A DNA stretch of 64,000 bases. Source: an uncultured Bifidobacteriaceae bacterium (lineage in GTDB: Bacteria; Verrucomicrobiota; Verrucomicrobiia; Limisphaerales; UBA11358). The position numbers were made by a program, and so were the translations under genes. Of this stretch, positions 4,067 to 63,467 are shown piece after piece. How positions within the stretch are numbered: position 1 is the first letter of the stretch; every line of letters starts with the position of its first letter. The stretch covers positions 2,885 through 66,884 of the forward strand of contig CAZUBG010000001.1 in the NCBI GenBank assembly GCA_964618545.1. Reading direction: 5' to 3'. The notes beneath the pieces are model-generated. The model worked only from the letters and a program-made list of their open reading frames with translations, was not told where the DNA came from and made no database searches.

Positions 4067-4524
4067 GGGATAAATACACCCTCCAACTTTTCTCCGGTGC
4101 GTGGATTCTCCAACCGCCACGACTCGTCGCCCAGCCGGGTAAAGCGCCAGGATCCAGGCGGGTTTAACCCGCACAGCGTGCGGGGCAATTGAAACCAGGC
4201 GAAGCGGTCCGGAGGCGCGCCTTGTCCCTGCCAGGCATGCTCGTCCGCGCCGAATTCAATCTGCCATCGGTCCCCGGAAATCTGCGCGGTCACCAGCGGG
4301 AAAGGCAGCTTGGAAAACTGAATGAAGCAGTTGCCATTGGCGTTGGTGGCCAGAAGCAGATCCCCTGCCAGTTCCGGACGGTTCGCCGGGGGATTCCAAA
4401 CCGCCTGGCCCGATTGGACTTTCCAGCCGGGCGTGGAAAAATCGGCGGGGGGCATCGGGCCTGTCGTGCGGCAGCCGGCGCAAATCAACAGCAGCAAGGC
4501 CGGTGAAAGGAGGTTCGAAAGCAT
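4063..4524 (-). CDS. lipoprotein of unknown function
   Basis: Internal ATG of track ORF 4063..4878. The N-terminus MLSNLLSPALLLLICAGC has a signal peptide plus lipobox-like Cys. The ATG at 4522-4524 overlaps the stop of the upstream gene (ATGA). Confidence 0.6.
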   Translation of the reverse strand: MLSNLLSPALLLLICAGCRTTGPMPPADFSTPGWKVQSGQAVWNPPANRPELAGDLLLATNANGNCFIQFSKLPFPLVTAQISGDRWQIEFGADEHAWQGQGAPPDRFAWFQLPRTLCGLNPPGSWRFTRLGDESWRLENPRTGEKLEGVFIP

Positions 4525-5807: not shown

Positions 5808-5976
5808 CAGCAATAAAGTTTTATTTATGAAATGACAATTGGCAAGCTTTGAAAATGCCACCCGGTGGGGTGCTCACCCCCTGCGTGGTTTTGGCAAACC
5901 TCGTCAACGCCCAACCGGCGCGGGCCTTGCCAAATGGTTCCGCGCCAATGTCACCGTGCCCGGTGTGCGGGCCGGT

Positions 5977-9374: not shown

Positions 9375-9818
9375 ATGAAATCCACGCTCCTGCTTCTGAG
9401 TTTGTTCCTGCCCCTGGCCGGCTGGTCCCAAACCTACACCATTGATTGGTACAAGATCGCCGGGGGTGGCGGCACCAGCACGGGCGGGACGTATCAGGTC
9501 AGCGGCACCATCGGCCAGACAGAGGCCGGCGTGGCGATGACCGGCGGCAGCTATTCTTTAACCGGAGGATTTTGGAGTATTATTTCCGTGGTGCAGTCGG
9601 CAGGCGTGCCGAAACTGATCATCGTGCCCAATGGGTCGAACAGCGTGAAGATCCTCTGGCCGGACACCGGGACCTACACCCTGCAACAAAACAGCAATCT
9701 TTCCGTTTCGTCCGGGTGGACGGCGAGCAGTTACACCGTCACCCCCGCCAACGGCACGAACAGCGTCACCATCACGCCGCCGTCGGGGAACCTGTTCTTT
9801 CGCCTGTCCAATCCCTAA
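9375..9818 (+). CDS. secreted hypothetical protein
   Basis: Signal peptide MKSTLLLLSLFLPLAGWSQ, Gly/Thr-rich segments (GGGGTSTGGTYQVSGTIGQ, YSLTGGFW), and a C-terminal ...LFFRLSNP. Confidence 0.55.
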   Translation: MKSTLLLLSLFLPLAGWSQTYTIDWYKIAGGGGTSTGGTYQVSGTIGQTEAGVAMTGGSYSLTGGFWSIISVVQSAGVPKLIIVPNGSNSVKILWPDTGTYTLQQNSNLSVSSGWTASSYTVTPANGTNSVTITPPSGNLFFRLSNP

Positions 9819-18394: not shown

Positions 18395-19948
18395 TTGGCC
18401 TCACGGTACGCTCCTTTGGTTTGTTCGGCGGCCCGGCGGCAGTTGGGCGACCCGCATCTGGCGGACGAAGTCACGCCGGCGGTTTTTATCATCCTTTCAC
18501 AAAAGGCCGGACGGATCGGCGACGCCACGGTTCTTTCCGGCTGGCTTTTCAAAACCACCCGCTTCGTCGCCCTGGCGCAAACCCGGGCCGCCGTCCGGCG
18601 ACACCGATACGAGCAGGAGTCCGTCATGCAATCCGAGGCCCACCCCACACCACCCGATCCGCTGTGGAAACAAATATCGCCCCTGTTGGACGAAGCCCTG
18701 ACGCAACTGGGCGAAAAAGACCGGCAAGCCGTGTTGTGGCGCTATTTTGAAGACAAAAGTCTGGCGGAAGTCGCGGGGACCGCAGGCACCAGCGAAGACG
18801 CCGCCCGCATGCGAATCAGCCGGGCGCTCAACAAGATGCACCGCTACTTTGAACGACGCGGCATCTCCTCAACCACGGCCATGCTCGCCGGGGTGATTCC
18901 CACCCATTCCCTGCAGGCCGCACCAGTTGAACTGGTCAAAACGCTCACGCTGGTGGCGGCGGCCAAAGGGGCGGCGGCCAGCACCCATGTGGTGTTGAAG
19001 CTGACGAAAACCAGGACCGGACACCTCGCGACCACCGATTGGATTGAAATGGGCCGGAAAGATGTCCCGATGGGCCGGGTGGTTTACGATTACCCGTCGC
19101 TCCACCTGGAATGGAATCCCAGGGACATCTGGAACCTGCGGGTGAATGCGGCGGCGACGCAAATGATTTTGGATCATTCGATTCACTTCATCCAGCCCGA
19201 TCCGGTGCCCCTGACGCACACCCCCACGCCCGACGCAGTACCCGACCCGTTGGATGAAGGCGATTTTGCACCGCGAACCGGCGCGAATTTGCAGGGTTAC
19301 TGGAAGGGGGCCATCGGCGCCGGGGCGGACGCAGTGCCGGTGAATTTGAAAATCTCCGGGCAGGCGGATGGAACCTTTCGCGCTGAAGGGGATGATCCGA
19401 TGCACGGCGTCTATGGGCAACCGCTCAACGTAAGCTGCCACCCGCCGACGGTGAAGATGACCCGCGCATCGGGTGCCGGATTGTTCCAAGGGGAAATCAA
19501 TCAGGCCGGCACGGAAATTTCCGGTTCGTGGGTTCAAGGAGGCCAATCCATGCCGGCGAGGGTCAGACGTGCGGATTATCAGGCGGAACACGCACAGGAT
19601 GCGGAGCAGGATTACACCTTCACCTCGGGAAATGATTTGCAGGAACATTGGAGAGGATCATGGATTGTGTCCATCGGAAAACTCAAGGTGCCCATCCGCA
19701 TGGCGCTCAACATTGCCAAACTGCCGAAGGGTGCAGATTCCGCCACGATTGCCAATGTGGACCAATTTGGCCAGGACGGCCCCGTCCCCGCCTCGAGTTT
19801 TCCATACTCGCCGCCTCATCTTCACTTGGAATGGGGATGGGCCGGCGGCGCTTTTGAAGGCCGGTTGGAAAACGGCAAACTGGCGGGCGCCTGGTTTGAG
19901 GGCGGTGGCGGCTTCCCGCTGGTTTTTGAACGCACTGGACCGCGCTGA
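18395..19948 (+). CDS. ECF sigma-70 family factor with C-terminal extension (third paralog; the 5' end is problematic)
   Basis: It has regions 2 and 4 (DKSLAEVAGTAGTSEDAARMRISRALNKMHRY). The conserved N-terminal codons ([22 protein letters not shown]) lie upstream of the track's TTG start, in the same frame but with no ATG. The nearby ATG at 18315 is out of frame. Confidence 0.7.
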   Translation: MASRYAPLVCSAARRQLGDPHLADEVTPAVFIILSQKAGRIGDATVLSGWLFKTTRFVALAQTRAAVRRHRYEQESVMQSEAHPTPPDPLWKQISPLLDEALTQLGEKDRQAVLWRYFEDKSLAEVAGTAGTSEDAARMRISRALNKMHRYFERRGISSTTAMLAGVIPTHSLQAAPVELVKTLTLVAAAKGAAASTHVVLKLTKTRTGHLATTDWIEMGRKDVPMGRVVYDYPSLHLEWNPRDIWNLRVNAAATQMILDHSIHFIQPDPVPLTHTPTPDAVPDPLDEGDFAPRTGANLQGYWKGAIGAGADAVPVNLKISGQADGTFRAEGDDPMHGVYGQPLNVSCHPPTVKMTRASGAGLFQGEINQAGTEISGSWVQGGQSMPARVRRADYQAEHAQDAEQDYTFTSGNDLQEHWRGSWIVSIGKLKVPIRMALNIAKLPKGADSATIANVDQFGQDGPVPASSFPYSPPHLHLEWGWAGGAFEGRLENGKLAGAWFEGGGGFPLVFERTGPR

Positions 19949-47994: not shown

Positions 47995-48010
47995 TGGCAC
48001 AGAAACGGCT
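47995..48010 (+). promoter_or_regulatory. sigma54-type -24/-12 promoter upstream of the otsA-otsB fusion
   Basis: TGGCACagaaacgGCTA with canonical GG/GC spacing. The ATG is at 48028. Confidence 0.5.
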
Positions 48011-48027
48011 AAGACCACGCCAGGATT

Positions 48028-50268
48028 ATGAGGCTGGTCGTTATTTCCAACCGGTTGCCATTCACGGTGACGTTACAGGACAACTCGCCGCAGTTCAAGC
48101 CCAGCGCGGGCGGTTTGGCCACCGGCTTGTGGAGTTATCTGGATCGCAAGCCGGCCCACGGCGCGGTGCCACAGGAGCACCTTTGGATGGGCTGGCCCGG
48201 CACCGACATTCCGGCCGAGCACGAGGCGGCGGTGCGGGCGCATGCCGAACAGGAATTTAAGGCCAGCCCGGTGTTCGTCCCGGCGGAGAAGATGGACCGG
48301 TTTTATCTTGGTTTTTGCAACAAGACGCTCTGGCCGCTGTTTCATTACTTTCCTACTCTGACGCATTACGATGAGCAGTACTGGCAGGAGTACCGGCAGG
48401 TGAACCGGATTTTTGCGGAGGCGGCGGTCAAAGTTCTGAAGCCGGACGATTTGCTTTGGGTCCATGATTACCATCTGATGCTGGCGCCCAGAATGGTGCG
48501 GGAAAAATTCCCGGAACTGCTGATCGGATTTTTCCCGCACATCCCCTTTCCGTCCTGGGAAATCTTCCGGATGCTGCCGCGTCCCTGGCGCGAGGAAATC
48601 ATCGAAGGGCTCCTGGGGGCCAGTCTGGTTGGCTTCCACACGCACGATTATGTCCAGTATTTTCTGACCTCGGTGCTGCGCACGGTTGGCCATGAACATC
48701 AACTCGGGAGTCTGGCGCTGCGCGACCGCGCGGTGAAGGCGGACACGTTCCCGATGGGGGTGGAGTTTGATCGTTTTGCACAGGCGGCGGCGTCCAAGGA
48801 GACCGAACTACAGATGGAAAAGCTGCGGCAGACGTGCCTCGGGCAGAAGGTGATTTTTTCCGTGGACCGGCTGGATTACACCAAGGGACTGATCAACCGG
48901 CTGCGGGGGTACGAATTATTCTTGGAGCTTAATCCGCAGTGGCACGGCCGGGTGGTGTTCATCATTTCGGTGGCCCCGTCGCGGATCGGGGTGGACAGCT
49001 ACCAGACGATGAAGCTGGAACTGGAGCAGACGGTGGGCCGGATCGCCGGGAATTTCGGCAACGTGCATTGGACGCCGTTGATTTACCAGTACCGCAACCT
49101 GACCTTTGAGGAAATCGTGCCGCTGTACCGCCTGTGCGACGTGGCGCTCATCACACCGTTGCGCGACGGGATGAACCTGGTGGCGAAGGAATTCGTGGCG
49201 TCGCGTCCGGATCAGACCGGGGTGTTGATTCTGAGCGAGATGGCGGGGGCCGCGAAGGAAATGGGCGAGGCGCTGATCGTCAACCCGTTTCACCGTGAGG
49301 ATTTTGCAAAAATGCTGGAACAGGCGCTGACGATGCCGCGGGAGGAGCAAATCCGGCGGAACCAACTGATGCGGGAACGACTGCGCCGTTACAATGTCGT
49401 GCGCTGGGCGGAGGATTTTGTGCAGGCCCTGTGGGCCACGCAGAAGGCGGAGGCGGCCCGGCGGGCGCGAGCGCTGACAGGGGGGGCGCTGGCGACTTTT
49501 ATCCGGCAGTACCACGCGGCCGCAGAGCGGGCGTTGCTGCTGGATTATGACGGGACGCTGGTGCCATTTGCGACTGAGCCGCGACTGGCCCAGCCGGATC
49601 GGGAACTGATCGAGCTGCTCACTGCGTTGGGCTCTGATCCCGCAAATCAAGTGGCCATCGTCAGCGGCCGGCCCCGAAACACGCTGGAGGAATGGTTCGG
49701 CGGGCTGCCCATTTCCCTGATTGCCGAACACGGGGTCTGGCTGCGGAAGCAAGACTCGGACTGGCGCCTGTTGAAAAGCATGAGCGGTGACTGGAAGGAA
49801 GGGGTGCGTCCCCTGCTTCAGCTTTTCGTGGACCGGCTGCCGGGCGCGTTGCTGGAGGAGAAGGAATTTTCACTGGCATGGCACTACCGGCGCGCCGATC
49901 CGGAGCAGGCTTCGCTGCGCGCCAAGGAGCTGCTGGATGATCTGGCGGGTTACACGCGGAACATTGATGTGCAGGTCTTTAATGGCAAGAAGGTGGTGGA
50001 AGTGCGAAACTCGGGGATCAACAAAGGCAGCGCCGCGCTGGAATGGCTGGCCGGCCGGACCCCGGAGTTCGTTCTCGGCATCGGGGACGACTGGACAGAC
50101 GAGGATTTGTTCCGGGCGCTGCCGCCGACCGCCTTCACGGTGCGCGTGGGCGCGGCGGCCACGGCGGCAAATCATTATCTGGCCACGCACACCGCCGTGC
50201 GGCGGCTGCTCCGGGAATTAAGCGAAGCTCCTCGTGCAAAAGTCCATGAAGCCATCCCGGTCAAGTAA
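48028..50268 (+). CDS. otsA: bifunctional trehalose-6-phosphate synthase / phosphatase (OtsA-OtsB fusion)
   Basis: GT20 N-terminal region ([14 protein letters not shown]..., [28 protein letters not shown]) plus a HAD phosphatase C-terminus ([12 protein letters not shown]...[10 protein letters not shown]). Confidence 0.9.
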
Positions 50269-53200
50269 TGGATCGGCCGCGCCCAACGGGGAACGGTTCT
50301 GGTATAAAAGCGGGGTGATTTACGAGGTGCATGTCCGGGCGTTTTACGATGCGAACGGGGATGGCACCGGGGATTTTCGCGGGCTCATCGAGAAGCTGGA
50401 CTACATTCATGACCTCGGGGTGACGGCGATCTGGCTGCTGCCGTTTTATCCGTCACCGCTGAAGGACGACGGCTATGACATCGCCGACTACTGCAACGTG
50501 CATCCGATGTACGGCACCCTGGCCGATTTCAAACAGTTTCTGGCCGGGGCGCATGAGCGAGGGCTGCGGGTCATCACGGAACTGGTGTTGAACCACACTT
50601 CGGACCAGCATCCCTGGTTCCAGCGCGCGCGCCGGGCGAAACCGGGCAGCCGCCGGCGGAATTTTTATGTCTGGAGCGATGACCCGCACCGGTTCAAGGA
50701 CGCCCCGGTGCTGTTCAACGGGGTGGAAGTTTCCAATTGGACGCTCGACCCGGTGGCGGGCACGTATTTCTGGCACCGATTTTTTTCGCATCAACCGGAT
50801 TTGAATTTTGACGAGCCCGCGGTGCGCGCGGCGATTTTAAAGGCGGTGGATTTCTGGCTCGACCTGGGGGTGGATGGGCTGCGGCTGGACGCGGTTCCGT
50901 ATCTTTATGAGCGCGAGGGCACTCCCTGCGAAAACCTGCCGGAGACCCACGCTTTTCTGAAAACGCTGCGGGCCCATGTGGATGAAAAATACGGAAACCG
51001 GATGCTGCTGGCGGAGGCGAACTTGTGGCCGGAGGACGCGGTTTCGTACTTTGGCCGGGGCGCGGGGGATGAGTGTCACATGGCGTTTCACTTTCCACTG
51101 ATGCCCCGATTGTTCATGGCGCTGCGCATGGAGGACCGGCTGCCCATCGTGGAAATTCTGGAGCAGACGCCGGCGATCCCGGAGACCAGCCAGTGGGCGC
51201 TGTTCCTGCGCAATCATGACGAGCTGACGCTGGGCACGGTTTCGGACGAGGAGCGCGACTACATGTACCGGATGTATGCGCGGGTGCATCAGGCGCGCCT
51301 GTATCTGGGCATCCGCCGCCGGCTGGCCCCGCTGTTGAACAATGATCGCAAAAGCATTGAACTGCTCAACGCGCTGCTGTTTTCCCTGCCCGGCACGCCG
51401 GTGCTGTATTATGGGGATGAAATCGGGCTGGGGGACAACATCTACCTGGGCGACCGGGACGGGGTGCGCACGCCAATGCAATGGAGCGCGGATAAGAATG
51501 CGGGTTTTTCCCGGGCGAACCCGCAGAGCCTTTACCTGCCGATCATCCTCGAACCAGCCTACCATTACGAGGCGAACAACGTGGAAGTGCAACTGGACAA
51601 CCCGCACTCGCTGTTGTGGTGGATGCGCCGGCTGCTGGCGCTGCGCAAGCGCTGGCGCGCGCTGGGGGAAGGGAAGTGCGAATTTCTGCAACCGGGCAAC
51701 GACAAGATCATCAGCTACATTCTGCGCCACGAACAGGAGGTCATTCTGGTGGTGGCCAATCTTTCCCGCTTCGCCCAACCGGTGGAACTGGAGCTGGCGG
51801 CGTTCCGACACCTGACCCCCACCGAACTGTTTGGCCGGATGAAATTCCCGGTGATCACGGAGGCGCCGTATTCCCTGACGCTGGGGCCGCACAATTTTTT
51901 CTGGTTTTCGTTGGAAGCCAAACCTTCGTCCCCACCGACGATGGCCGCGCCGACGGGGGCGGAGCCGCCGCCCGAGCTGACCGTCAATGAGGAATGGAGG
52001 GAGATCTTCACCGGCTCCGCCCGGTTAAAACTGGAGCTAATCCTGCCCGACCGCCTGAAAGCGCAGCCGTGGTTTTCCGGCGGAGCCAGGACCATCAAGC
52101 TGGTCACGATCAAAGAAGCCTTCAGTGTGGCCCTGCCGGAGTCTCAAACGGCGGTGCTGGCCTTTCTTCAGGTCGAATATGTGGAGACCAATCCGGAGTT
52201 GTATGTGCTGCCCATGGCTTTTGCACCCGGACAAGGTACGCAGCGATTGCAGTCCGGGGGCATTGCCCGGCTGACGCGGCCGGATGGCAGCCCGTTCGGG
52301 ATGCTGGGGGACGCCTTTGCCGTCCCGGCGTTTGCCCGGGCGCTGCTCGGACAGGTCCGGAACCGTGGGCGTTTGCGCAACGCGCATGGAGAAATCGAGG
52401 CCACCCGCACGACGGCGCTGCGACAGACCATCGAGGGCGAGAATCCGCCCGATCCGGTCGTCCACCAGACCTCCGAGGGCAACGTCACGCTGCTTTTTGG
52501 CGATCAAATGGTCGTGAAGTTTTTCCGACGCATCAGTCCCGGGGTGAATCCAGAACTGGAAATTGGAAATCTGCTCACCGGAAAACATTTCCCGAACAGC
52601 CCGCCGCTGCTGGGGGCGCTGGAATACCACGGAGCAGACCAGAGTCCCATGACGCTCGCGGTGGCCCGGGCTTTTGTCCCGCACGCCCGGAATGGCTGGG
52701 AATTCACGTTGGAGGCCATTGGACGGTATTACGAGGGCGTGGTCGCCGAGGTGGCCCAAGGGCATGGCCCCCCCGCCGACCCCGCTGAAGACTCCGAATT
52801 GATCGGAACTTATCTGGAATCGGCACGGCTGCTGGGGGTGAGGACGGCCGAACTCCACCTGGCCCTGGCGTCCGGCCCGCCGGGGGGCGAGTTTTCCATC
52901 GAACCCATGACGCTGCAATACCTCCGGGGACTGTTTCAATCCATGCGCTCACTGGCGCTGAAGAACCTGCGCCGGTTGCGGAAACAAATAAAAACCCTGC
53001 CGGCGGACCTGGCACCGGTCGCCCAGCGGGTGCTGGAACTGGAACCAGTCATCCTGCGGTACTATCACGAATTGGTGGGACAACGCCTCAGCGCGGGCCG
53101 CATCCGTATCCACGGTGACTTTCATCTTGGCCAGGTGCTGTGGACGGGCCGGGATTTCATGTTTCTGGACTTTGAAGGCGACGTGAAGCTGCCCATCAGC

Positions 53201-53632
53201 GAACGCCGCATCAAACGATCGCCGCTGCGTGATGTGGCGCGCATGCTGCGTTCGTTTCATCACGCCACCTATGCCGGGTTCCATCAGCAGGCGGAATGCG
53301 GGGTGATTTCCCGGGAGAACCCGCCGCATTTCGAGCCGTGGGTACGGCATTGGAACCGGGCGGTGAGCCGCGCTTATGTTCAGTCCTACTGCCAGAGTCT
53401 GGCCCCCTCGGGGATCCTCCCGGGTGAGGAGGACAAGCTCCACCTGATCCTGGTGGACTATCTGCTCAATCAGGTGCTCGGGGAACTGGGCGAGGAATTG
53501 CAGCGCCGCTCCGACCAAGTGCGCGCCCCGTTGCAGGCCATCATCCACCTCACCGATGAGCAGATGCTGCGGCACATCACCGGCACCCATGGCGGAAAAC
53601 CCGCCGGACCGCCTAAACCATCAACCGGTTAG
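50234..53632 (+). CDS. treS: trehalose synthase (maltose alpha-D-glucosyltransferase) fused to maltokinase
   Basis: GH13 TreS motifs (WYKSGVIYEVHVRAFYDANGDGTGDF, GLRLDAVPYL, FLRNHDELTL), then a C-terminal ~450-aa kinase-like region (RIHGDFHLGQVLW, FLDFEGD). The start may be the ATG at 50246. Confidence 0.9.
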   Translation: MQKSMKPSRSSNGSAAPNGERFWYKSGVIYEVHVRAFYDANGDGTGDFRGLIEKLDYIHDLGVTAIWLLPFYPSPLKDDGYDIADYCNVHPMYGTLADFKQFLAGAHERGLRVITELVLNHTSDQHPWFQRARRAKPGSRRRNFYVWSDDPHRFKDAPVLFNGVEVSNWTLDPVAGTYFWHRFFSHQPDLNFDEPAVRAAILKAVDFWLDLGVDGLRLDAVPYLYEREGTPCENLPETHAFLKTLRAHVDEKYGNRMLLAEANLWPEDAVSYFGRGAGDECHMAFHFPLMPRLFMALRMEDRLPIVEILEQTPAIPETSQWALFLRNHDELTLGTVSDEERDYMYRMYARVHQARLYLGIRRRLAPLLNNDRKSIELLNALLFSLPGTPVLYYGDEIGLGDNIYLGDRDGVRTPMQWSADKNAGFSRANPQSLYLPIILEPAYHYEANNVEVQLDNPHSLLWWMRRLLALRKRWRALGEGKCEFLQPGNDKIISYILRHEQEVILVVANLSRFAQPVELELAAFRHLTPTELFGRMKFPVITEAPYSLTLGPHNFFWFSLEAKPSSPPTMAAPTGAEPPPELTVNEEWREIFTGSARLKLELILPDRLKAQPWFSGGARTIKLVTIKEAFSVALPESQTAVLAFLQVEYVETNPELYVLPMAFAPGQGTQRLQSGGIARLTRPDGSPFGMLGDAFAVPAFARALLGQVRNRGRLRNAHGEIEATRTTALRQTIEGENPPDPVVHQTSEGNVTLLFGDQMVVKFFRRISPGVNPELEIGNLLTGKHFPNSPPLLGALEYHGADQSPMTLAVARAFVPHARNGWEFTLEAIGRYYEGVVAEVAQGHGPPADPAEDSELIGTYLESARLLGVRTAELHLALASGPPGGEFSIEPMTLQYLRGLFQSMRSLALKNLRRLRKQIKTLPADLAPVAQRVLELEPVILRYYHELVGQRLSAGRIRIHGDFHLGQVLWTGRDFMFLDFEGDVKLPISERRIKRSPLRDVARMLRSFHHATYAGFHQQAECGVISRENPPHFEPWVRHWNRAVSRAYVQSYCQSLAPSGILPGEEDKLHLILVDYLLNQVLGELGEELQRRSDQVRAPLQAIIHLTDEQMLRHITGTHGGKPAGPPKPSTG

Positions 53633-53748
53633 TGCAGGATGCAACCCATCCCGATCGCATCTTGCGGATTGCAGGCTGAGCCGCCGGCAACGCCCGCCTC
53701 CGCCCGCCGAATGTCCCGGTTTCACCGGTCGGACGCGACTGAGGCCAT

Positions 53749-53764
53749 TGGCACGAAGCGAGCT
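53749..53764 (+). promoter_or_regulatory. sigma54-type -24/-12 promoter upstream of the small membrane protein gene
   Basis: TGGCACgaagcgaGCTA. The ATG is at 53848. Confidence 0.5.
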
Positions 53765-53847: not shown

Positions 53848-53994
53848 ATGCTCTACACCCTCGCCTTAATCCTGATCATTGCCTGGCTGCTGGGATTTGT
53901 TTCATCCTACACCCTGGGCGGCTTCATCCACATACTGTTGGTCATCGCCCTCATTTTGGTCCTTGTGCGGCTGATTCAGGGCCATAGACTATGA
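53848..53994 (+). CDS. lmo0937-family small membrane protein (not in the ORF track, 48 aa)
   Basis: My own translation is MLYTLALILIIAWLLGFVSSYTLGGFIHILLVIALILVLVRLIQGHRL*. It matches the family pattern WLLGF...YTLGG.IH.LLVIA......RLIQG.R. Confidence 0.75.
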   Translation: MLYTLALILIIAWLLGFVSSYTLGGFIHILLVIALILVLVRLIQGHRL

Positions 53995-55832: not shown

Positions 55833-56099
55833 ACGTTTGTCAGCAACCCTGGTCAACTGGCCCATCGGCGTGCGGATCCGGGTGATGCCAGTTCCTTTTA
55901 GCAAAGACCGCGCCAACCCGGACCGGCCCCTGATTCCAATCGAAATCACCGCAAACTGACTCCACGGGGTCCGATGCAAACTGCAATCTGCAACCGCGCG
56001 GGGGAGCATATTTTGCAATCTGCAACCCGCCCGGTCCGCCCGATTTGACACGCCATCAAGCCATGCTTATTGTGACCATGAGACGGATTATTGCCCGGC

Positions 56100-56128
56100 T
56101 GGACAAACCGGATGAAGAGCGCTATAAT
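56100..56128 (+). promoter_or_regulatory. sigma70-type promoter of the CHASE3 kinase operon
   Basis: TGGACA (56100-56105), a 17-nt spacer, TATAAT (56123-56128), 54 nt before the ATG at 56183. Confidence 0.45.
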
Positions 56129-56182: not shown

Positions 56183-58318
56183 ATGCTTAAAGAACCCAAC
56201 AAGCAAATTTATAAGGCAGTGGTGGTCGTGTGGCTGACCCTTTCACTGGGGAGCGTGTTGTTGGCGGCGGCCAACTGGTCGCAACTTTCCCGACTGGTCA
56301 TTGCCGGCCGGCAGGAGACTGGCGTTCGGGAAAACCTGGAACAAATCCTCAAGCTGCTGCTGGACGCCGAAACGGCGGCGCGGGGCTACGTCATCACCGG
56401 CGACAAGAAATTCCTCGGACCGTTGAATGAAACGGAGACGAATCTGCCAGCTTGTTTTGACGCCCTGGCCCAGGCCGCCCCGGAGGAAACCGAACTGCTG
56501 GAAAAGTTTACGGTTCTGCACACCCAGGCCGTGGTGTGCCTGAGCTGGCAATTCAAACTCACCGCCACCCGGGACCGCAGTTTTGGCCGGGCCTCCGACC
56601 TGATGATGACGGGCGAGGGGAAAACGCTGATGGACGGCATCCGCGATCAGGTGGCGAATCTTGGCAAAATCCTGCAAGAACGGCAGGCGAAGCTTCGCGG
56701 GGAAGTGGGAACCCAGTTGTTTCGGGTCGGCCTGACGAGTCTGTGGGCGGGGATTCTGGCCATTGGCTTCGGAGTCTATGCCTTCTGGCTGTCGCGCCTG
56801 ACCTTGAAACATCAAAAGCGGGAGGGGGAGTTAATGGAGGACAAGTTGCGGGCGGAGCACAGCAACAAGGAAAAGAATGTGTTTTTGGCCAATATGAGCC
56901 ATGAAATCCGCACGCCGATGAACGCCATCCTCGGTTTCAGCGAACTGCTGCTGGAGGATTTGCGCGAGCCCCGGCAGCGCCAGTACCTCCAATCCATCCA
57001 GACCAGCGCGAACTCACTGCTCCTGCTCATCAACGACATTCTGGACGTGTCAAAAATCGAGGCCGGGGTCATGCAATTACGCCCCGAACCGACCGATCCG
57101 CGTGAGATCAGTGATCTCATCCGAACCCTGTTTGCCGAACCGGCCGCCAAGAAAGGCATCCGGTTGGAGTGCCAGGTGGCGCCGGATTTGCCCCGGGCCC
57201 TGCTGGTGGATCGCATCCGGCTCCGCCAGATTCTCGTCAATCTGGTTGGCAACGCGGTCAAATTCACGGACGTGGGGATGGTGGAAACGCGGGTGACGTG
57301 GATCAAACAAGCGAATGGCGGCCATCTGACGCTGGTCATTGAAGTGCAGGACACCGGGGTCGGCATTCCACCGGACAAGCTGGCCGTCATTTTCCAGCCG
57401 TTCACCCAGGTGGGCAACCATCGGGAAAAGGAAACCCAGGGGACGGGGCTGGGTCTGGCCATCGTCAAACGCCTGGTCGAACTCATGGGGGGGACGGTGA
57501 CCGTGGCAAGCGTGCCGGGCCAGGGATCGGTGTTTCACCTGCGCATTCCGGACGTGGCCATTTCGGCGCGCCTGGCCAGCGCCGAGAAAGTCCATTCCCG
57601 GGCAGAGGTCAATTTTGATGAACTCGCCCCGGCCACCCTGCTCGTGGTGGATGACTATGAGTTGAACCGCCAGTTGATCGCCGGCATGTTCGCCGACACG
57701 CATCACCGCCTGTTGTTTGCCGCCAGCGGCGAGGAAGCCCTGATCCAGGCGCGCGCCGACAAACCCGACCTCCTGCTCATGGACCTCCGACTGCAGGGCA
57801 TGAGCGGACAGGAGACGCTGGTGGAAATTCGCAAAATCAACGGCCTGGAATTGATGCCCGTCCTGGCCGTGACCGCCGCCAGCCTGACGGAGGCCGAAAA
57901 CTCATTGCCGGAGCACTTCAGCGGTTATGTGCGCAAGCCCTTCACCAAGCGTGAACTCTTTGAGGAACTCGCCGGATTCCTGCCCACCCGGACGGCGGCG
58001 GAAGCCGCGTGGATTCCACCCGCGCCCGGAACCTCCCTGGAATACTCCGCCCCGGTTCCCCGGGAATTGCTCGCCCAATTGCGCCAGCAGCTCATCCACC
58101 CCTGGCCGTCCCTGCGCGACAGCGTCGCGGTCAACGACAGCCGCGTCTTTGCCCAGGGATTGGAAGGCCTGGGCCGGCGCTGGCAATGTCCGGCCCTGAT
58201 CGGCTACGCGCAAACCCTGTTGAGTGACGTGGAGAATTACGCGGTGGCGGATTTGGAAACCCACCTGGGCCAATTTGCCGCCTTGGTCGAAGAACTGGTC
58301 CGCCACACCCCTGAATGA
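56183..58318 (+). CDS. hybrid sensor histidine kinase (CHASE3 sensor, HisKA, HATPase, REC, degenerate Hpt-like tail)
   Basis: CHASE3-like N-terminal region (LLLDAETAARGYVITGDKKFLGP), H-box FLANMSHEIRTPMNAILGF, G-boxes (DTGVGIP, GTGLGLAIVKRLV), and a REC domain (LLVVDDYELNRQ...LLLMDLRLQGMSG). Confidence 0.85.
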   Translation: MLKEPNKQIYKAVVVVWLTLSLGSVLLAAANWSQLSRLVIAGRQETGVRENLEQILKLLLDAETAARGYVITGDKKFLGPLNETETNLPACFDALAQAAPEETELLEKFTVLHTQAVVCLSWQFKLTATRDRSFGRASDLMMTGEGKTLMDGIRDQVANLGKILQERQAKLRGEVGTQLFRVGLTSLWAGILAIGFGVYAFWLSRLTLKHQKREGELMEDKLRAEHSNKEKNVFLANMSHEIRTPMNAILGFSELLLEDLREPRQRQYLQSIQTSANSLLLLINDILDVSKIEAGVMQLRPEPTDPREISDLIRTLFAEPAAKKGIRLECQVAPDLPRALLVDRIRLRQILVNLVGNAVKFTDVGMVETRVTWIKQANGGHLTLVIEVQDTGVGIPPDKLAVIFQPFTQVGNHREKETQGTGLGLAIVKRLVELMGGTVTVASVPGQGSVFHLRIPDVAISARLASAEKVHSRAEVNFDELAPATLLVVDDYELNRQLIAGMFADTHHRLLFAASGEEALIQARADKPDLLLMDLRLQGMSGQETLVEIRKINGLELMPVLAVTAASLTEAENSLPEHFSGYVRKPFTKRELFEELAGFLPTRTAAEAAWIPPAPGTSLEYSAPVPRELLAQLRQQLIHPWPSLRDSVAVNDSRVFAQGLEGLGRRWQCPALIGYAQTLLSDVENYAVADLETHLGQFAALVEELVRHTPE

Positions 58319-59481
58319 ATCCTGATTTATACCCAAACGACCCCCGGCCCGACCGGCCGGAGGAATGGCCGCGCACCGTTTTCGCCGAGGCCGGCCCGGC
58401 GTGCATTCTGGTGGTGGACGACCAACCGTCCAATATTCAGATGGTGGGGTCCGTGCTGGGGCGGCTGGGGCATGAAATCCTCCCGGCGTTTGACGGGGAA
58501 ACCGCCCTGAAGCGAGTGGCGGTGCGCCCTCCGGATTTGATCCTGCTCGACCTGCTGATGCCCGAGATGGACGGTTTTGACGTTTGCCGGCAGTTGAAGG
58601 CCAGTCCGGCCTGGCGGGACATCCCCATCATTTTTCTCTCCGCCGCCGACGACAAGGATCTGATCGTGCGCGCGTTGAACGCCGGCGGCGTTGACTACAT
58701 CACCAAACCGTTCAACCAGGCGGAGCTCGTCTCCCGCGCGCGCACGCAACTGGCGCTGAAAACCGCGCGCGACCAGCTCCGGCAACTGGCGGAAGACAAG
58801 GACGAACTGCTGGGAATTCTGGCCCATGATTTGAAAAATTACCTGGGCGGCATGAACCTGACCGCCCAGTTGTTGTTCGACCGCATCAAATCCGGTCCCG
58901 ACGCGCGGCTGGCCCACCTCGCGGAGAACATCCTGCGTTCGAGCGATCAATCCCTGACCTTTGTGAAGAAATTCCTCGCCAATGCGGCGGCCGAGCACCG
59001 CCTGGCCGTCAAACCGGGCGTCTTCAATCTCACCGAGGTCGCCGCCGGGGTCATCCGGCAGTACCAGGATGCCGCCCGGCGGAAACAATTGCAAATCCGG
59101 ACCGATTTTCCAACGGAACCGGTTCTGGCGCTGGGGGACGTCTCGGCACTCGACCAGGTGCTGGACAACCTGCTGTCCAACGCGCTGAAGTTTTCTCCGC
59201 CGGGGAAAAAGGTGCAGGTCAGCATCCGGCCGGCCGGCCGGCGGGTCGAGTGCCTTGTCCGGGATGAAGGCCCCGGTTTCACGGTTGAAGACCAGGCCGC
59301 CATGTTTCACCGTTACAAACGACTTTCGGCCCGGCCGACCGGGGGGGAGCCGTCCACGGGCCTGGGTCTGAGCATTGTGCGCAAACTGGTGCTGGCCATG
59401 AACGGGGAGTTGTCGTGTGAGAGTGAACCGGGAAAGGGGGCAAGCTTCACCATCCGCCTGCCGGGTTCGGAGGCAAACTGA
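58315..59481 (+). CDS. response-regulator receiver fused to a histidine kinase core
   Basis: REC domain (ILVVDDQPSNIQ...LILLDLLMPEMDG), H-box LGILAHDLKNYLGG, and an ATPase region (DEGPGF, GLGLSIVRKLV). The ATG overlaps the upstream stop (ATGA at 58315-58318). Confidence 0.85.
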   Translation: MNPDLYPNDPRPDRPEEWPRTVFAEAGPACILVVDDQPSNIQMVGSVLGRLGHEILPAFDGETALKRVAVRPPDLILLDLLMPEMDGFDVCRQLKASPAWRDIPIIFLSAADDKDLIVRALNAGGVDYITKPFNQAELVSRARTQLALKTARDQLRQLAEDKDELLGILAHDLKNYLGGMNLTAQLLFDRIKSGPDARLAHLAENILRSSDQSLTFVKKFLANAAAEHRLAVKPGVFNLTEVAAGVIRQYQDAARRKQLQIRTDFPTEPVLALGDVSALDQVLDNLLSNALKFSPPGKKVQVSIRPAGRRVECLVRDEGPGFTVEDQAAMFHRYKRLSARPTGGEPSTGLGLSIVRKLVLAMNGELSCESEPGKGASFTIRLPGSEAN

Positions 59482-59490
59482 ACTGAGTTT

Positions 59491-60855
59491 ATGATGAATT
59501 TTTTGGTGGTGGATGACGAGCAGACCTTTCGGGAGGCCACTTGCTTTCTCATCGGAGAGACCGGACACATGGCGGAGGGCGCGGCGGCCGGCCCGCCCGC
59601 CCTGGCGGCGCTGAAGCAGGAGACCTTTGACGCCGTGCTGCTGGATCTGAACCTCGGCCAGGAAAGCGGCCTCGACCTGCTGGTGACCCTGCAAAAACAG
59701 TTTCCCCAGATCCCCGTGGTCATGTGTACCGCCCAGGGCAGCGTGAAAAACGCCGTGGAAGCCATGCGGCGCGGGGCGGTTGATTTTCTTGAAAAGCCCT
59801 TCCAGCGCGAACAGTTCCTGACGGTGCTGGCCCGGTTGCAGCGGCTGGGCCAGTTGAACCGGCAAATCGAGCAACTGGCGCGGCAGGTCAATGAAAACAA
59901 AACCCAGAGCCTCGAGCCCATTTTTGACTTCACCTCCCCCGCCATGCGCGACGTGATGGACCTGCTCCTGCGCGCTGCCAAAACGCCCGCCTCCATCATG
60001 ATTCTGGGGGAGACCGGCACCGGCAAGAGCGTCGCCGCGCGCGCGGTTCACGATCAAAGCCATCTGGCCGAGAAGCCGTTTGTCACGGTGAGCTGCCCAA
60101 GCCTCTCACGCGAGTTGCTGGAAAGCGAACTGTTTGGTCATGTCAAGGGTGCCTTCACCGGCGCCATCAAGGATCATTGGGGCAAAGTCCGGGCCGCCGA
60201 CGGAGGCACCCTGTTCTTGGACGAGATCGGCGATTTGCCCATGGAAATTCAGCCGAAACTGCTGCGTCTGCTGCAGGAGCGCGAATACGAGCGGTTGGGG
60301 GAAAATGTCACCCGCACCGCCACTCTGCGCGTCATCGCCGCGACGAATCGCGATTTGAAAAAACGCGTGGCCGAGGGCGGGTTCCGTGAGGATCTCTATT
60401 TTCGCCTCAATGTCATCACCGTTGAAATGCCGCCCCTGCGCATGCGGGACGGGGATTTGCTTCGCCTGGCCGCGCATTACGAGGAGTTTTTCGCCCGGCA
60501 ATGCGGCCGGCGCCCCGGCGGACTTTCGCCCGGGGCGATCGCCTGCCTCCAGGCATACGGGTGGCCGGGCAACCTGCGGGAATTGCGGAACGTCATGGAG
60601 CGGGCCGTGATTCTCGCCCGCGGGGAGCAACTCATGCCGGAGGATTTCCCCGCCGAACTGCGCCTTCCGCCGCCCGCCGCCCGGGCCGCAGCCGATCCGC
60701 TCCCACCCGGTGCCATGGTCTCCCTGGAAACATTGGAGGAGGCTCATTTGCGAAAAGTCCTGGAACAAACCAAAAACCTGTCTGACGCCGCCGCCGTGCT
60801 CGGCATTGACCAGGCCACCCTGTACCGGAAACGCAAGAAACTGGGCCTGGAATGA
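59491..60855 (+). CDS. sigma54-dependent (NtrC-family) response regulator
   Basis: REC domain, an AAA+ module with GETGTGKS, ESELFGHVKGAFTGA (GAFTGA loop) and GGTLFLDEIGDL, and a C-terminal Fis-type HTH (AAAVLGIDQATLYRKRKKLG). Confidence 0.92.
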   Translation: MMNFLVVDDEQTFREATCFLIGETGHMAEGAAAGPPALAALKQETFDAVLLDLNLGQESGLDLLVTLQKQFPQIPVVMCTAQGSVKNAVEAMRRGAVDFLEKPFQREQFLTVLARLQRLGQLNRQIEQLARQVNENKTQSLEPIFDFTSPAMRDVMDLLLRAAKTPASIMILGETGTGKSVAARAVHDQSHLAEKPFVTVSCPSLSRELLESELFGHVKGAFTGAIKDHWGKVRAADGGTLFLDEIGDLPMEIQPKLLRLLQEREYERLGENVTRTATLRVIAATNRDLKKRVAEGGFREDLYFRLNVITVEMPPLRMRDGDLLRLAAHYEEFFARQCGRRPGGLSPGAIACLQAYGWPGNLRELRNVMERAVILARGEQLMPEDFPAELRLPPPAARAAADPLPPGAMVSLETLEEAHLRKVLEQTKNLSDAAAVLGIDQATLYRKRKKLGLE

Positions 60856-60929: not shown

Positions 60930-61376
60930 TCAATTGGCCATCGCGGCGTGCCAGGCATCCCGGAAGGAATCCTTCACATCCTCCCAGGTGCTCTGGAAGT
61001 TCGTCTTCACTCCCTCCCAGTCCGCCGCCGTCGCGTCTTTGACGCTGGCGAATTTCTGCTGCAGCACGGCGCGCTGATCCCGGAGATTTTGCAGTTTTGT
61101 TTGAATGCTGGCTTTTGCGGTCTCGTCGGCATTGGTGGCCTTGTCCGACAAATCCTTGATTCGGGTGTCGAGCGCGGCCAGGTCCGCCCGGGCCTTGGCC
61201 ACAAACTCATCCTTGCGCTCATAGCTGTAATCCACCGCCGCCGCCAGGGATCCGGCGTTGGACACCACGTTGGTGTTTTTCAACGCCGGGCTGTCCACCG
61301 GCGACTTGATCGGCTGACACCCGGTCAGCAGGCCGGCGAGGCCGAGGACGGTAAGCAGGGCGGTTTTGTCATTCAT
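60930..61376 (-). CDS. coiled-coil lipoprotein, unknown function (paralog of 5977..6423)
   Basis: Lipobox LLTGC. Shares the YSYERKDEFV...KLQNLRDQ...ATAADWEGVK pattern with the 5977..6423 product. Confidence 0.7.
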   Translation of the reverse strand: MNDKTALLTVLGLAGLLTGCQPIKSPVDSPALKNTNVVSNAGSLAAAVDYSYERKDEFVAKARADLAALDTRIKDLSDKATNADETAKASIQTKLQNLRDQRAVLQQKFASVKDATAADWEGVKTNFQSTWEDVKDSFRDAWHAAMAN

Positions 61377-61433
61377 AAACGGGCGACCGGTTGACGCTGC
61401 TTTCTATTAACATCAACGGAACCAAGGGGTTTT

Positions 61434-61449
61434 AGCACGCTCCATGCCA
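61434..61449 (-). promoter_or_regulatory. sigma54-type -24/-12 promoter of the lipoprotein gene
   Basis: The minus strand reads TGGCATggagcgtGCTA. The ATG is at 61376. Confidence 0.55.
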
Positions 61450-61510
61450 GCGCTTTGAAAGGCCAAAATCAACAATCCGGGGTCCGGGATTCATGCGAAA
61501 TGCAATTCCC

Positions 61511-61529
61511 GGGTTGCCGCTTGCAACCC
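61511..61529. promoter_or_regulatory. inverted repeat GGGTTGC-N5-GCAACCC, candidate enhancer (UAS) shared by the divergent sigma54 promoters
   Basis: Perfect 7-bp arms centred at 61520, the midpoint between the two -24 boxes (61449 and 61591). It is flanked by further TGCAAT (61501) and GGTTGC (61532) half-sites at ~10-bp phasing. Confidence 0.4.
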
Positions 61530-61590
61530 CCGGTTGCTCCCGCCTCTCGTAAACCGCTCAAACTCACCCCGGGCGGGCGCCCCCCGGGAC

Positions 61591-61606
61591 TGGCATGGCC
61601 CAAGCT
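61591..61606 (+). promoter_or_regulatory. sigma54-type -24/-12 promoter of the repeat-protein gene
   Basis: TGGCATggcccaaGCTA. The ATG is at 61647. Confidence 0.55.
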
Positions 61607-61646
61607 AAATTTCCGTTTAACAAATGAAACCAAATAAAGGAAACAT

Positions 61647-62501
61647 ATGAAAATAACTGCGTATCCCTTTTGCACGGCGGTCTGCATGTCAGTCTTGAGT
61701 TGGTCCCCGGCCACCCAGGCACGGGCGGATCAGGCGGTCGCCGCCGCCAAGCCGGAACAGACTTACACGGGCACGGTTCAGGCCGTTGACCCCCAGGACC
61801 ACACCCTGAACGCCAGGCACTGGCTGCAAACCAGAAAATTCAACCTCGGCGACGATTGCGTCTATATCTTGTCGGACCAAATTCCCGGCACGGTCAATGA
61901 CCTGCGCCCGGGCCAAAAAGTCCGCGTCAGCTACCAGACCTCCCAGGGCGTGCGGGTGGCCGACCGCATCGAGCAGGTGCCGTTGCGCATCGAAGGCATG
62001 GTGAAGGCCGTTGATCCCGCCAACCACACCCTCACGCTCCATCGCCGGGCGCTGGACAAGGACTTTCAGATTCCCGGCGATTGCCGCATCGAGTTGCTGA
62101 ACAATCATCCGGGCACCATGGCCGACATTCAAGTCGGCGACCATGTGACTGTGACCTACGAAACGCCCGGCGATAAATTCACCGCCCGGCAGATTGCGCT
62201 GACCAGCCAGATGTTCACCGGTTCCCTGGTCGCCATTGATTTGCCGGAGCGAACCATTAAGGCCACCGGCGAATTCAGCACCAAAAAATTCGTCCTCGCC
62301 GATCAGTGCGCCATCGTGATCAACGGGAAACCAGCCGGACGACTGGAGGACCTCAAACCCAATGACAAGCTGGTCTTTAACTACGACAACATCAATGGCG
62401 TCAACGTCGTCAACCGGATCGCCCCGACGCCGGAGACGCCGGCGGCGCCCAATTCCGCCATGACCGCCCCCGGCCCGAACCTGCCCGGCATGGGTTACTA
62501 A
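61647..62501 (+). CDS. secreted protein with ~3-4 internal beta-rich repeats, unknown function
   Basis: Signal peptide (...SPATQARA). A ~65-70-aa unit recurs: G-x-V-x-AVD-x3-x-TL ... F-x-hydrophobic-x-D-C ... DL-x-PG-x-KV-x-V-x-Y. Confidence 0.65.
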   Translation: MKITAYPFCTAVCMSVLSWSPATQARADQAVAAAKPEQTYTGTVQAVDPQDHTLNARHWLQTRKFNLGDDCVYILSDQIPGTVNDLRPGQKVRVSYQTSQGVRVADRIEQVPLRIEGMVKAVDPANHTLTLHRRALDKDFQIPGDCRIELLNNHPGTMADIQVGDHVTVTYETPGDKFTARQIALTSQMFTGSLVAIDLPERTIKATGEFSTKKFVLADQCAIVINGKPAGRLEDLKPNDKLVFNYDNINGVNVVNRIAPTPETPAAPNSAMTAPGPNLPGMGY

Positions 62502-62550: not shown

Positions 62551-62901
62551 ATGAAAAACACGACAACCCTCCTCATCACCCTGCTCACCGGCGCCACCCT
62601 GGGCTGGACCGTCGGCTGCACCGTTCAACCCGTGCAACCCGTGCAACCCGCGCCACCGCCCGGCGCGGTGGCGGGGGAAGTCGAGGTCCCGATGGATCCC
62701 CCGGCGGACATCATGCAATCCCCCCCTTCGTCTCCCGGTTTGGCCTATGTCTGGGTGGGCGGTTCCTGGGTGTGGAATGGCGCCTGGGTTTGGGAGCCCG
62801 GACGCTGGCAAATTCCGCCGCATCCCGGGGCGGTGTGGGTTCCCCACCGCTATGAGAATCGCAACGGCCGGCATGTCTTCATTCGGGGCGGCTGGCGTTG
62901 A
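62551..62901 (+). CDS. YXWGXW-repeat lipoprotein
   Basis: Lipobox (TVGC), a Pro-rich linker, then YVWVGGSWVWNGAWVWEPGRWQIPPHPGAVWVPHRYENRNGRHVFIRGGW. Confidence 0.7.
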   Translation: MKNTTTLLITLLTGATLGWTVGCTVQPVQPVQPAPPPGAVAGEVEVPMDPPADIMQSPPSSPGLAYVWVGGSWVWNGAWVWEPGRWQIPPHPGAVWVPHRYENRNGRHVFIRGGWR

Positions 62902-63050
62902 GGCGGGAGGAGCCGCCGGCTGACCGGGCGGCCCGGACGATTTTCCGCGCCAGCACTGGCGCGGGGAATTCCGGGCCGCCGGCGGCCGGGGTTGCAAAAT
63001 TGGAAAGATGTGCTAGGGTCAAAGGTCCGCTGTTTTCAAGGATTAACAGC

Positions 63051-63467
63051 ATGAAAATACACATTCTCATCAGTCTCGTGACCTGCGTCCTTTTGGGGTG
63101 GTCGGGCCCGGGGGCGGTTCCGGTGCTGGCCATGGACCGCTGGTCGGCGCTTTCATTGATTGAATCCGGAAACAACGATGCCGCCGTCGGTCGCGCCGGG
63201 GAGGTCACCCGGTACCAGATCAAGCCGCTGCTCTGGGCCAGGTATTGCCAGCCCTATCCGGTCACGGCCCGAACCGATCCGCAGGCGGCTCTGCGGGCGG
63301 CTCAACTCATCATGAGCGCGCGCTGCCGGAAGTTTGAACACCACTTCAACCGGGCCCCGACGGATTTTGAATATTATATTTTGTGGAACGCCCCGGCGCA
63401 GGTTCGGAATCCAAACCGGATCGTTTCGGACCGCGCCAACCGGTTTTGCAACCTGGTGAGCGGGTGA
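63051..63467 (+). CDS. lytic transglycosylase (SLT-like) domain protein
   Basis: Signal peptide, then LIESGNNDAAVGRAGEVTRYQIKP, resembling the SLT catalytic E-S-G...G..Q motif. The ATG at 63051 lies inside track ORF 62898..63467. Confidence 0.65.
   Translation: MKIHILISLVTCVLLGWSGPGAVPVLAMDRWSALSLIESGNNDAAVGRAGEVTRYQIKPLLWARYCQPYPVTARTDPQAALRAAQLIMSARCRKFEHHFNRAPTDFEYYILWNAPAQVRNPNRIVSDRANRFCNLVSG

Follow-up and report, generated by a model that had tools for sequence, protein, structure and literature searches.

A candidate bidirectional sigma-54 control region with a shared two-dyad enhancer beside an NtrC-family activator operon in Verrucomicrobiota

Two divergently transcribed genes of an uncultured Verrucomicrobiota bacterium are separated by an intergenic region (61377-61646) that carries two outward-facing sigma-54-type -24/-12 elements with an inverted repeat between them, close to an operon encoding an NtrC-family activator. 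The region lies in a 64,000-nucleotide stretch of contig CAZUBG010000001.1, the whole of which was analysed and is referred to as the window; coordinates are those of the window. The question raised by this arrangement is whether the two promoters, termed P3 and P4, are served by one enhancer, and whether the neighbouring activator is the protein that acts through it. From comparison of related sequences, a probability of roughly 75 % is given to the reading that 61377-61646 is a bidirectional sigma-54 control region in which P3 and P4 share an enhancer of two dyads and the neighbouring activator acts through that enhancer.

Two samples were used for comparison, consisting of 84 loci with an ortholog of the activator (705 kb) and, for wider tests, 131 fetched loci together with the window. 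Individual loci are designated L followed by a number. Geometry is given throughout as the distance in bp from the centre of a dyad to the GG of the promoter element. A module was defined as a dyad followed by a sigma-54-like element at a distance of 40-125 bp, and dyads were counted with at most 1 mismatch.

The divergent promoter pair

P3 (TGGCATGGAGCGTGCTA, 61433-61449, minus strand) and P4 (TGGCATGGCCCAAGCTA, 61591-61607, plus strand) were identified as sigma-54-type -24/-12 elements by direct reading of the sequence. Both have GG-N10-GC spacing and each points at a flanking gene, P3 at a lipoprotein gene and P4 at a gene for a secreted repeat protein. This is as the first-pass annotation of this DNA had described them, with the correction that the elements end at 61433 and 61607 and not at 61434 and 61606. 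P3 reads TGGCAT-GGAGC-GTGCT and P4 reads TGGCAT-GGCCC-AAGCT. The -24 halves are a near-perfect match to TGGCAC-N5-TTGCW and the -12 halves keep GC(T) without the TT. The -12 GC of P3 lies 58 nt from the lipoprotein ATG and that of P4 lies 41 nt from the repeat-protein ATG, and transcription is predicted to start at ∼61422-61424 (minus) and ∼61616-61618 (plus), respectively. In sequence, orientation, distance to the gene and conservation among orthologs, both elements correspond to sigma-54 promoters.

When the left arm of the region was reverse-complemented, CTGGCATGG and GCTAAA took exactly the positions of their counterparts in the right arm. The GG of P3 and the GG of P4 are therefore each 72.5 bp from the palindrome centre at 61520. 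Elements of the relaxed form TGGCAY-N7-GCW were found 9 times in the window with 3.6 expected, and a divergent pair of this type with a separation of 80-300 bp was found once, against 0 of 300 Markov simulations. The P3-P4 intergenic region was scanned for sigma-70-like promoters and for terminators or T-runs, and none were found.

Two dyads between the promoters

The palindrome GGGTTGC-N5-GCAACCC (GGGTTGCCGCTTGCAACCC, 61511-61529) had been placed exactly midway between the promoters, and the measured distances agree. Its core, TTGCCGCTTGCAA at 61514-61526, is a dyad of the type TTGCA-N3-TGCAA, in which two self-complementary TTGCAA hexamers lie one base apart. A second copy that matches the dyad consensus, ATGCGAAATGCAA at 61493-61505, is located 21 bp to the left. 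Both are putative activator-binding sites; the left copy is termed dyad 1 and the palindrome dyad 2. Dyad 2 is 72.5 bp from either GG, and dyad 1 is 51.5 bp from that of P3 and 93.5 bp from that of P4. As 21 bp corresponds to two helical turns, the two dyads would lie on about the same helical face toward both closed complexes. The distances of 51.5, 72.5 and 93.5 bp also differ by two helical turns, so that one bound complex would face both promoters.

The enhancer had previously been described as one palindrome with additional half-sites at about 10-bp phasing. All four half-sites are present (TGCAAT at 61501, GGTTGC at 61512, TGCAAC at 61522 and GGTTGC at 61532), and the extra ones are accounted for by the presence of dyad 1, being in fact a second full dyad, with the half-site at 61532 not conserved. 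The candidate enhancer is thus composed of two full dyads 21 bp apart, and not of a single palindrome with phased half-sites.

Perfect 7-5-7 inverted repeats occur 5 times in the window and a mean of 6.4 times in simulations, and the palindrome was therefore rejected as significant by itself. Its significance is due to recurrence and conservation and not to its palindromic form. The GGG/CCC flanks and the half-site at 61532 were rejected as parts of the site because they are not conserved. The spacing variant TGC-N5-TGCA was rejected as a motif as it was not enriched (12 found, 13 expected), and the correct form is TTGCA-N3-TGCAA or TGC-N4-TGCAACC. Alignments contained one further conserved block between P3 and dyad 1, GCCAAAATC at 61462-61470, which is retained in L052, L068 and L135 and, almost completely, in L132. 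An IHF site within this block was considered and is not claimed, as it is a half match by eye only.

Orthologous intergenic regions

The arrangement of lipoprotein gene on the left and repeat-protein operon on the right is also found in L068, L132 and L135, and L133 is a derivative of it. In L068, L132 and L135 the P3, dyad 1, dyad 2 and P4 elements are conserved whereas the spacers have diverged, between orthologs that are 59-67 % identical. The conserved blocks are the -12 and -24 regions of P3, GCCAAAATC, CATGCnAAATGCAA, TGCCnCTTGCAA, CTGGCAYG-N4-nAGCTA and the ribosome-binding site. Across five loci there is hardly any change in CATGCnAAATGCAA of dyad 1, and TGCCnCTTGCAA of dyad 2 is conserved in as many. 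The counterparts of P3 are TGGCATGAGGTGTGCT (L052-54), TGGCCTTGAGTATGCT (L068), TGGCCTGGCATATGCT (L135) and TGGCGCGAAGTATGCT (L132). The P4 form CTGGCAYG-N4-nAGCTA is kept in L068, L132, L133 and L135, and P4-like elements precede repeat-protein homologs in L007, L009, L010 and L028.

The geometry of the pair was compared across the four divergent loci. From P3, dyads 1 and 2 are at 51.5 and 72.5 bp in the window, 50.5 and 72.5 bp in L068, 51.5 and 73.5 bp in L135 and ∼51.5 and 73.5 bp in L132. From P4, dyads 2 and 1 are at 72.5 and 93.5 bp in the window, 72.5 and 94.5 bp in L068, 73.5 and 95.5 bp in L135 and 71.5 and ∼93.5 bp in L132, where the dyad 1 distances were worked by hand from the alignment. 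The GG-to-GG distance is 145 bp in the window, L068 and L132 and 147 bp in L135. The earlier proposal that one enhancer serves both promoters is strengthened by this comparison, since dyad 2 stays 71.5-73.5 bp from the GG on each side in L068, L132 and L135.

Loci with only one of the two transcription units were also available. L052-54, in which the activator is 91 % identical to that of the window, have the lipoprotein gene and P3 and lack the repeat-protein operon; both dyads are kept at 50.5 and 71.5 bp. In L133 the lipoprotein gene has been lost and both dyads are kept at 72.5 and 95.5 bp from P4. Each promoter would accordingly use both dyads, as L052-54 and L133 keep both. L133 is only partly a clean case of a rightward promoter alone, as a displaced minus-strand -24/-12-like element, TGGCATACAGTATGCG, persists at 3600-3800 of that locus, in phase with the dyads at 70.5 and 93.5 bp and followed by an 11-codon remnant of the lipoprotein gene. 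Taken over these alignments, the comparison indicates that the symmetric spacing of the divergent pair is held by selection and that the dyads are shared where genes diverge. Strict synteny of lipoprotein and repeat-protein genes over all 47 repeat-protein loci was considered and rejected, as most homologs occur in other contexts.

Dyads and modules across related loci

Dyads numbered 134 in the 84 ortholog loci, against an expectation of 16 from shuffles (largest shuffle 24), and modules numbered 43 against an expectation of 0.25 (largest shuffle 1). Over the 131 loci and the window, 54 sigma-54-like sites have a dyad upstream and 2 have one downstream, a comparison that served as an internal control. 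All fetched loci and the window together gave 66 distinct modules, in which the dyad-to-promoter distances cluster at ∼50.5, 61.5, 72.5, 83, 93, 105, 114 and 126 bp. The Rayleigh test for these modules gave p = 4e-9 at a period of 10.5 bp and p = 2e-10 at 10.7 bp, and was not significant at periods of 7-9.5 or 12-14 bp. This helical phasing is a statistical signature and not a functional test. Two features expected of an enhancer were found, in that dyads upstream of the -24 element recur in the regulon and dependence on the face of the helix is seen statistically.

Positions of the promoter that were not forced by the search also resemble those of sigma-54 promoters, as A stands at position 5 of TGGCA in 55 of the 66 modules and TGGCAY is followed by G in 37. 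The lineage promoter consensus from these modules is TGGCAYG-N4-(A/T)(A)GCTA. Where dyads occur in pairs, the usual spacing is 30-33 bp, and 21-23 bp is less frequent. Dyads flanked by divergent promoters, at varied spacings, are seen again in L074, L083, L101, L125, L129 and L131. In L083 a single perfect dyad, TTGCATTCTGCAA, lies nearly midway (126.5 and 125.5 bp) between divergent sigma-54-like elements at 9568 (minus) and 9817 (plus).

The window itself contains 7 dyads, which are located in three promoter regions. The exact sequence TGCNNNNTGCAACC (TGC-N4-TGCAACC) occurs 4 times in 64 kb, always within three intergenic regions that have -24/-12 elements.

For many homologs of the repeat protein, the operon adjoins the gene of a paralogous activator and has a different upstream motif. 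In the repeat-protein operons beside this paralog, which is 37-40 % identical, the dyad is absent, and another conserved upstream motif (..TGGTCA..TTGCCAGC..TGGAAAA..TTACCAC..) and a promoter of the TGGCACGCTTTGCGCT type are present. The repeat-protein family thus seems, from its upstream motifs, to be under sigma-54 control by at least two different activators. Loci of this kind are L001, L003, L006, L014, L015, L020, L023, L025 and L043-L045, in the stretch 600-1800 nt upstream of the repeat-protein homologs.

The activator and its operon

The three regulatory genes at 56183-60855 had been read as a CHASE3-kinase/REC-kinase/NtrC set, and Pfam searches confirmed the domains. The operon begins with a CHASE3-HisKA-HATPase-REC hybrid kinase (56183-58318, plus strand), followed by a REC-HisKA-HATPase kinase (58315-59481, plus) directly upstream of the gene for an NtrC-family enhancer-binding protein with REC, Sigma54_activat and HTH_8 domains (59491-60855, plus), which is the proposed dyad binder. 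Pfam matches of the activator were Response_reg (6e-25), Sigma54_activat (3.5e-65), AAA_lid_14 and HTH_8 (2.7e-8), and GAFTGA, GETGTGKS (Walker) and LFLDEIGD are present in the translation. The protein therefore has the make-up of the group I NtrC family, namely a receiver, an AAA+ domain with GAFTGA and Walker A and B motifs and a Fis-type helix-turn-helix (HTH). Its best matches among the named equivalogs were AtoC at 364 bits (cut-off 714), NtrC at 361 (559) and ZraR at 306 (760). As the activator is below all NCBIfam equivalog cut-offs, it was assigned to an uncharacterised subfamily and to no named regulator.

Orthologs of the activator that are 69-91 % identical are abundant. In 51 of 60 ortholog loci the activator gene is immediately preceded by the REC-kinase gene, and in 35 of 37 loci the CHASE3 kinase gene comes before the REC-kinase gene. 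The recognition helix of the activator, LGIDQATLYRKRK, is at least 95 % invariant across 116 orthologs. That the adjacent cascade is the regulator, as was first suggested, is made more probable by the dyad enrichment, the conserved operon, the invariant helix and the distinct motif of the paralog.

The kinase operon is preceded by two strong sigma-70-like promoters on the plus strand, at 56045-56073 (10 of 12 matches) and 56100-56128 (11 of 12). Both follow shortly after the dyads belonging to the divergent CsbD promoter. Autoregulation of the kinase and activator genes is improbable in this genome. Modules of dyad plus promoter occur directly upstream of the activator gene in L131 (706, plus) and directly upstream of the CHASE3 kinase gene in L093 (2440, plus), which suggests that, in contrast to the window, the activator or kinase is autoregulated in these lineages.

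Alternative explanations and the proposed mechanism

Several points weigh against a shared enhancer operated by this activator. The -12 regions of P3 and P4 (GTGCT and AAGCT) deviate from the textbook TTGCW; they agree with the pattern (A/T)GCT of the 66 lineage modules. A search for rpoN by its RpoN box over the window and the DNA of the fetched loci found nothing, and sigma-54 in this genome is an assumption taken from the GAFTGA domain of the activator. For DNA looping with no bending protein involved, 51.5 bp is a short distance. The shuffles behind the dyad and module counts kept mononucleotide content only, and as many loci come from related metagenome populations the counts overstate the number of independent events. 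Dyads are also present in repeat-protein loci that have no activator ortholog within 7 kb (L008-L011 and L028); such dyads would be expected of a trans-acting factor, yet they do not identify the binder. The evidence is wholly computational, consisting of sequence elements, conservation, geometry and statistical association, from which the sigma-54 dependence, the dyad-binding protein, the phosphorelay and the signal are inferred.

The association of activator and dyads is a genomic one, and the sigma-54 promoters might be real and the dyads be bound by another protein, such as a different enhancer-binding protein encoded elsewhere, a repressor or a nucleoid protein, with the activator nearby through synteny. 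The modules in loci without an activator ortholog within 7 kb fit this explanation, as do the several NtrC-type paralogs of Verrucomicrobiota (matches at 37-40 % identity). It is nevertheless thought unlikely, as dyads are enriched ∼8-fold and modules >100-fold around activator orthologs, in an orientation-specific manner (54 upstream, 2 downstream) and with the helical phasing to the -24 element that is expected of an activator contacting the sigma-54 holoenzyme. The distinct motif in loci of the paralogous activator, and an HTH invariance that parallels the invariance of the motif, also speak for the activator as the binder. Sharing of the dyads was considered separately. Dyad 1, at 51.5 bp, is at the proximal distance typical of other modules, and the geometries of other divergent pairs vary, as they might if dyad 1 belonged to P3 and dyad 2 to P4 and the symmetry were the incidental packing of independent modules. 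Such private sites are distinctly improbable given that both dyads are kept in L052-54, which have the leftward gene only, and in L133 after loss of the lipoprotein gene, that modules with a single direction normally have two dyads at 21-32 bp spacing, and that the GG-to-GG distance is 145-147 bp in four loci.

Least credible is an origin of the elements in chance matches, or in a non-promoter element such as an RNA hairpin or terminator, with the genes expressed from unrecognised sigma-70 or ECF-type promoters. Points in its favour are that a 7-5-7 palindrome is no rarity in the window, that the -12 elements deviate from the canonical form and that the RNA fold is moderate (-19.8 kcal/mol, z = -2.45). 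A terminator or RNA hairpin was rejected because the genes diverge, a T-run is absent and the fold is only modestly better than those of shuffles; no transcript ends between the P3 and P4 genes, as both start there and point away from each other. The scan for sigma-70-like promoters was negative, the divergent pair was not reproduced by any of the 300 simulations, the elements, unlike the spacers, are conserved across orthologs of 59-67 % identity, and the module recurs 66 times.

If P3 and P4 share the enhancer as proposed, a stress signal would be sensed by the CHASE3 kinase and passed via the REC-kinase to the receiver domain of the activator by phosphorylation. Activator dimers on the two dyads of the same face would nucleate an AAA+ ring, and through DNA looping this ring would remodel the sigma-54 holoenzyme at either promoter to give an open complex.

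Comparison with known systems

ZraR controls the divergent sigma-54 promoters of zraP and zraSR in E. coli and Salmonella (PMC4987338). The two systems have in common an NtrC-family response regulator, a divergent pair of sigma-54 promoters whose activator sites lie in a single short intergenic region, targets that include a stress protein of the periplasm or envelope, and a regulator encoded beside those targets. They differ in that one Zra promoter drives the regulator operon, giving autoregulation, whereas here the genes behind both promoters encode effectors and the promoters of the regulatory operon are sigma-70-like. The activator is also no ZraR equivalog (306 bits against 760), the sensor is a CHASE3 hybrid kinase with a second REC-kinase, and the binding motif and target families are different, with a much larger regulon here.

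The hyc and hyp operons are divergently transcribed. As in that FhlA-controlled pair, an upstream activator region is common to two divergent sigma-54 operons (the FhlA regulon is tabulated in PMC4987338). FhlA is unlike the present activator in being a formate-sensing protein with a GAF domain and no response regulator, and its motif, CATTTCGTACGAAATG, and physiology differ.

At glnAp2, NtrC has two dyad sites in tandem, separated by three helical turns, and these nucleate the active oligomer. The present system resembles it in having two same-face dyads upstream of a -24/-12 promoter (21 bp apart here and 30-33 bp in most modules) and an activator with REC-AAA+-Fis-type HTH architecture. The motif is TTGCA-N3-TGCAA here and TGCACC-N5-GGTGCA in NtrC, the sites of the present system, at ∼50 and 72 bp, are nearer to the promoter, its enhancer would work in either direction and the activator is below the NtrC equivalog cut-off (361 against 559 bits). 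An enhancer common to divergent sigma-54 promoters is thus an already known design, and for that reason the focal element is unsurprising; the regulon that it revealed is the more interesting part.

Genes flanking P3 and P4

The target of P3 is a lipoprotein of 148 residues (60930-61376, minus) from the sll1863 stress-response family (NF052504, 62.6 bits, cut-off 35) with an LTGC lipobox. In Synechocystis, Sll1863 is among the proteins most induced by salt and is a general stress protein (PMC8670252). The first gene of the P4 operon (61647-62501, plus), preceded by a good ribosome-binding site, AAAGGAA, encodes a secreted protein of 284 residues with CusF_Ec/DUF5666/DUF1344-like repeats, homologs of which are common in Verrucomicrobiota. 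The second gene (62551-62901, plus) encodes a 116-residue lipoprotein with YxWxxGxW repeats, for which no family match was found in Pfam or NCBIfam. These genes are as they had first been described. The third gene (63048-63467, plus) encodes a protein of 139 residues with only a weak RpfC-like match (E = 3.6e-4), far below the cut-off. The order of repeat protein, ∼110-residue protein and ∼138-residue protein is kept in L068, L132, L133 and L135.

Further promoter modules and the proposed regulon

Two other modules were located in the window. The P1 module (53632-53764, plus) consists of dyads GTGCAGGATGCAA (53632) and TTGCGGATTGCAG (53662) followed by the promoter element TGGCACGAAGCGAGCT (53749-53764), and is likewise present in L052. 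Its target is a 48-residue small membrane protein of the lmo0937/DUF5670 family (53848-53994, plus; NF033488, 62.4 bits, cut-off 30). The P2 module (55900-56025) has the promoter TGGCGCGGTCTTTGCT (55915-55900, minus) and dyads ATGCAAACTGCAA (55974), CTGCAATCTGCAA (55981) and TTGCAATCTGCAA (56013). Its targets are a CsbD-like gene (55865-55650, minus) and a CBS-domain gene (55653-55126, minus), and in many ortholog loci the CsbD gene and the kinase operon are transcribed away from each other. The pair of activator and dyad appears, from these shared motifs, to drive P1 (lmo0937-type) and P2 (CsbD-CBS) also.

Families encoded downstream of modules or beside the operon in the related loci were CsbD, DUF5670/lmo0937, DUF1328, DUF883, BON, DUF4142, DUF892, YflT, sll1863, CusF-like repeat proteins and trehalose synthesis. 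Across related Verrucomicrobiota the activator and dyad thus appear to drive a regulon of the general-stress type, judged by its gene content. The initial proposal that the adjacent cascade controls a set of envelope proteins was supported as to control; the targets are wider than proposed, are of the general-stress type and include those of the two additional window promoters.

General stress regulons are controlled by alternative sigma factors in other bacteria, SigB in Bacillus and RpoS in E. coli (PMC3162934). The gene content here is like that of those regulons, with CsbD, lmo0937/DUF5670, DUF1328, DUF883 (ElaB-like), BON (OsmY-like), DUF892 and trehalose synthesis. Control would be different, as it would be exerted by sigma-54 with a phosphorylated enhancer-binding protein and not by a dedicated stress sigma factor of the sigma-70 family. 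A wider hypothesis is offered tentatively, at somewhat less than even odds. According to it, the general or osmotic stress response of Verrucomicrobiota would run through sigma-54, by means of the operon of CHASE3 kinase, REC-kinase and activator and TTGCA-N3-TGCAA dyads that are often shared by divergent promoters, in place of RpoS, SigB and EcfG. The targets of this regulon would be CsbD, DUF5670/lmo0937, DUF1328, DUF883, BON, DUF4142, sll1863-type and CusF-like envelope proteins, and trehalose synthesis genes may belong to it. If this holds, the symmetric promoter pair of the window would be one node of a Verrucomicrobiota stress regulon made up of the small proteins of the general-stress type whose genes are controlled by RpoS, SigB or EcfG in other phyla.

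A literature search aimed at such a regulon, of incomplete coverage, found no earlier account of stress control by sigma-54 in Verrucomicrobiota, and a broad comparative study of sigma-54 mentions neither Verrucomicrobiota nor CsbD (PMC3162934). Such a regulon is apparently undescribed so far. The analysis provides a binding motif, a promoter consensus and a strict geometry for an uncharacterised and widespread activator of Verrucomicrobiota. It also provides a testable hypothesis on stress protection in a poorly studied, mostly uncultured phylum of soil and peat, and the conserved layout of 72.5 and 72.5 bp is a natural test case for the service of two promoters by one AAA+ ring.

Other elements in the window

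A sigma-54-like element, TGGCACAGAAACGGCT at 47995-48010 (plus), directly precedes genes for an OtsA-OtsB fusion and a TreS-like amylase (48028-53632). No TTGCA-N3-TGCAA dyad with 2 or fewer mismatches was found upstream of it. Trehalose genes adjoin the activator operon in L050 and L051 also. Another sigma-54-like element, TGGCATTTTCAAAGCT at 5860-5845 (minus), is located just upstream of a gene similar to FAD-dependent halogenases and monooxygenases (4524-5861), with no dyad nearby. The window also encodes a 517-residue protein (18395-19948, plus) with Sigma70_r2 and Sigma70_r4 domains in the first ∼150 residues, followed by a long C-terminal extension without a Pfam match.

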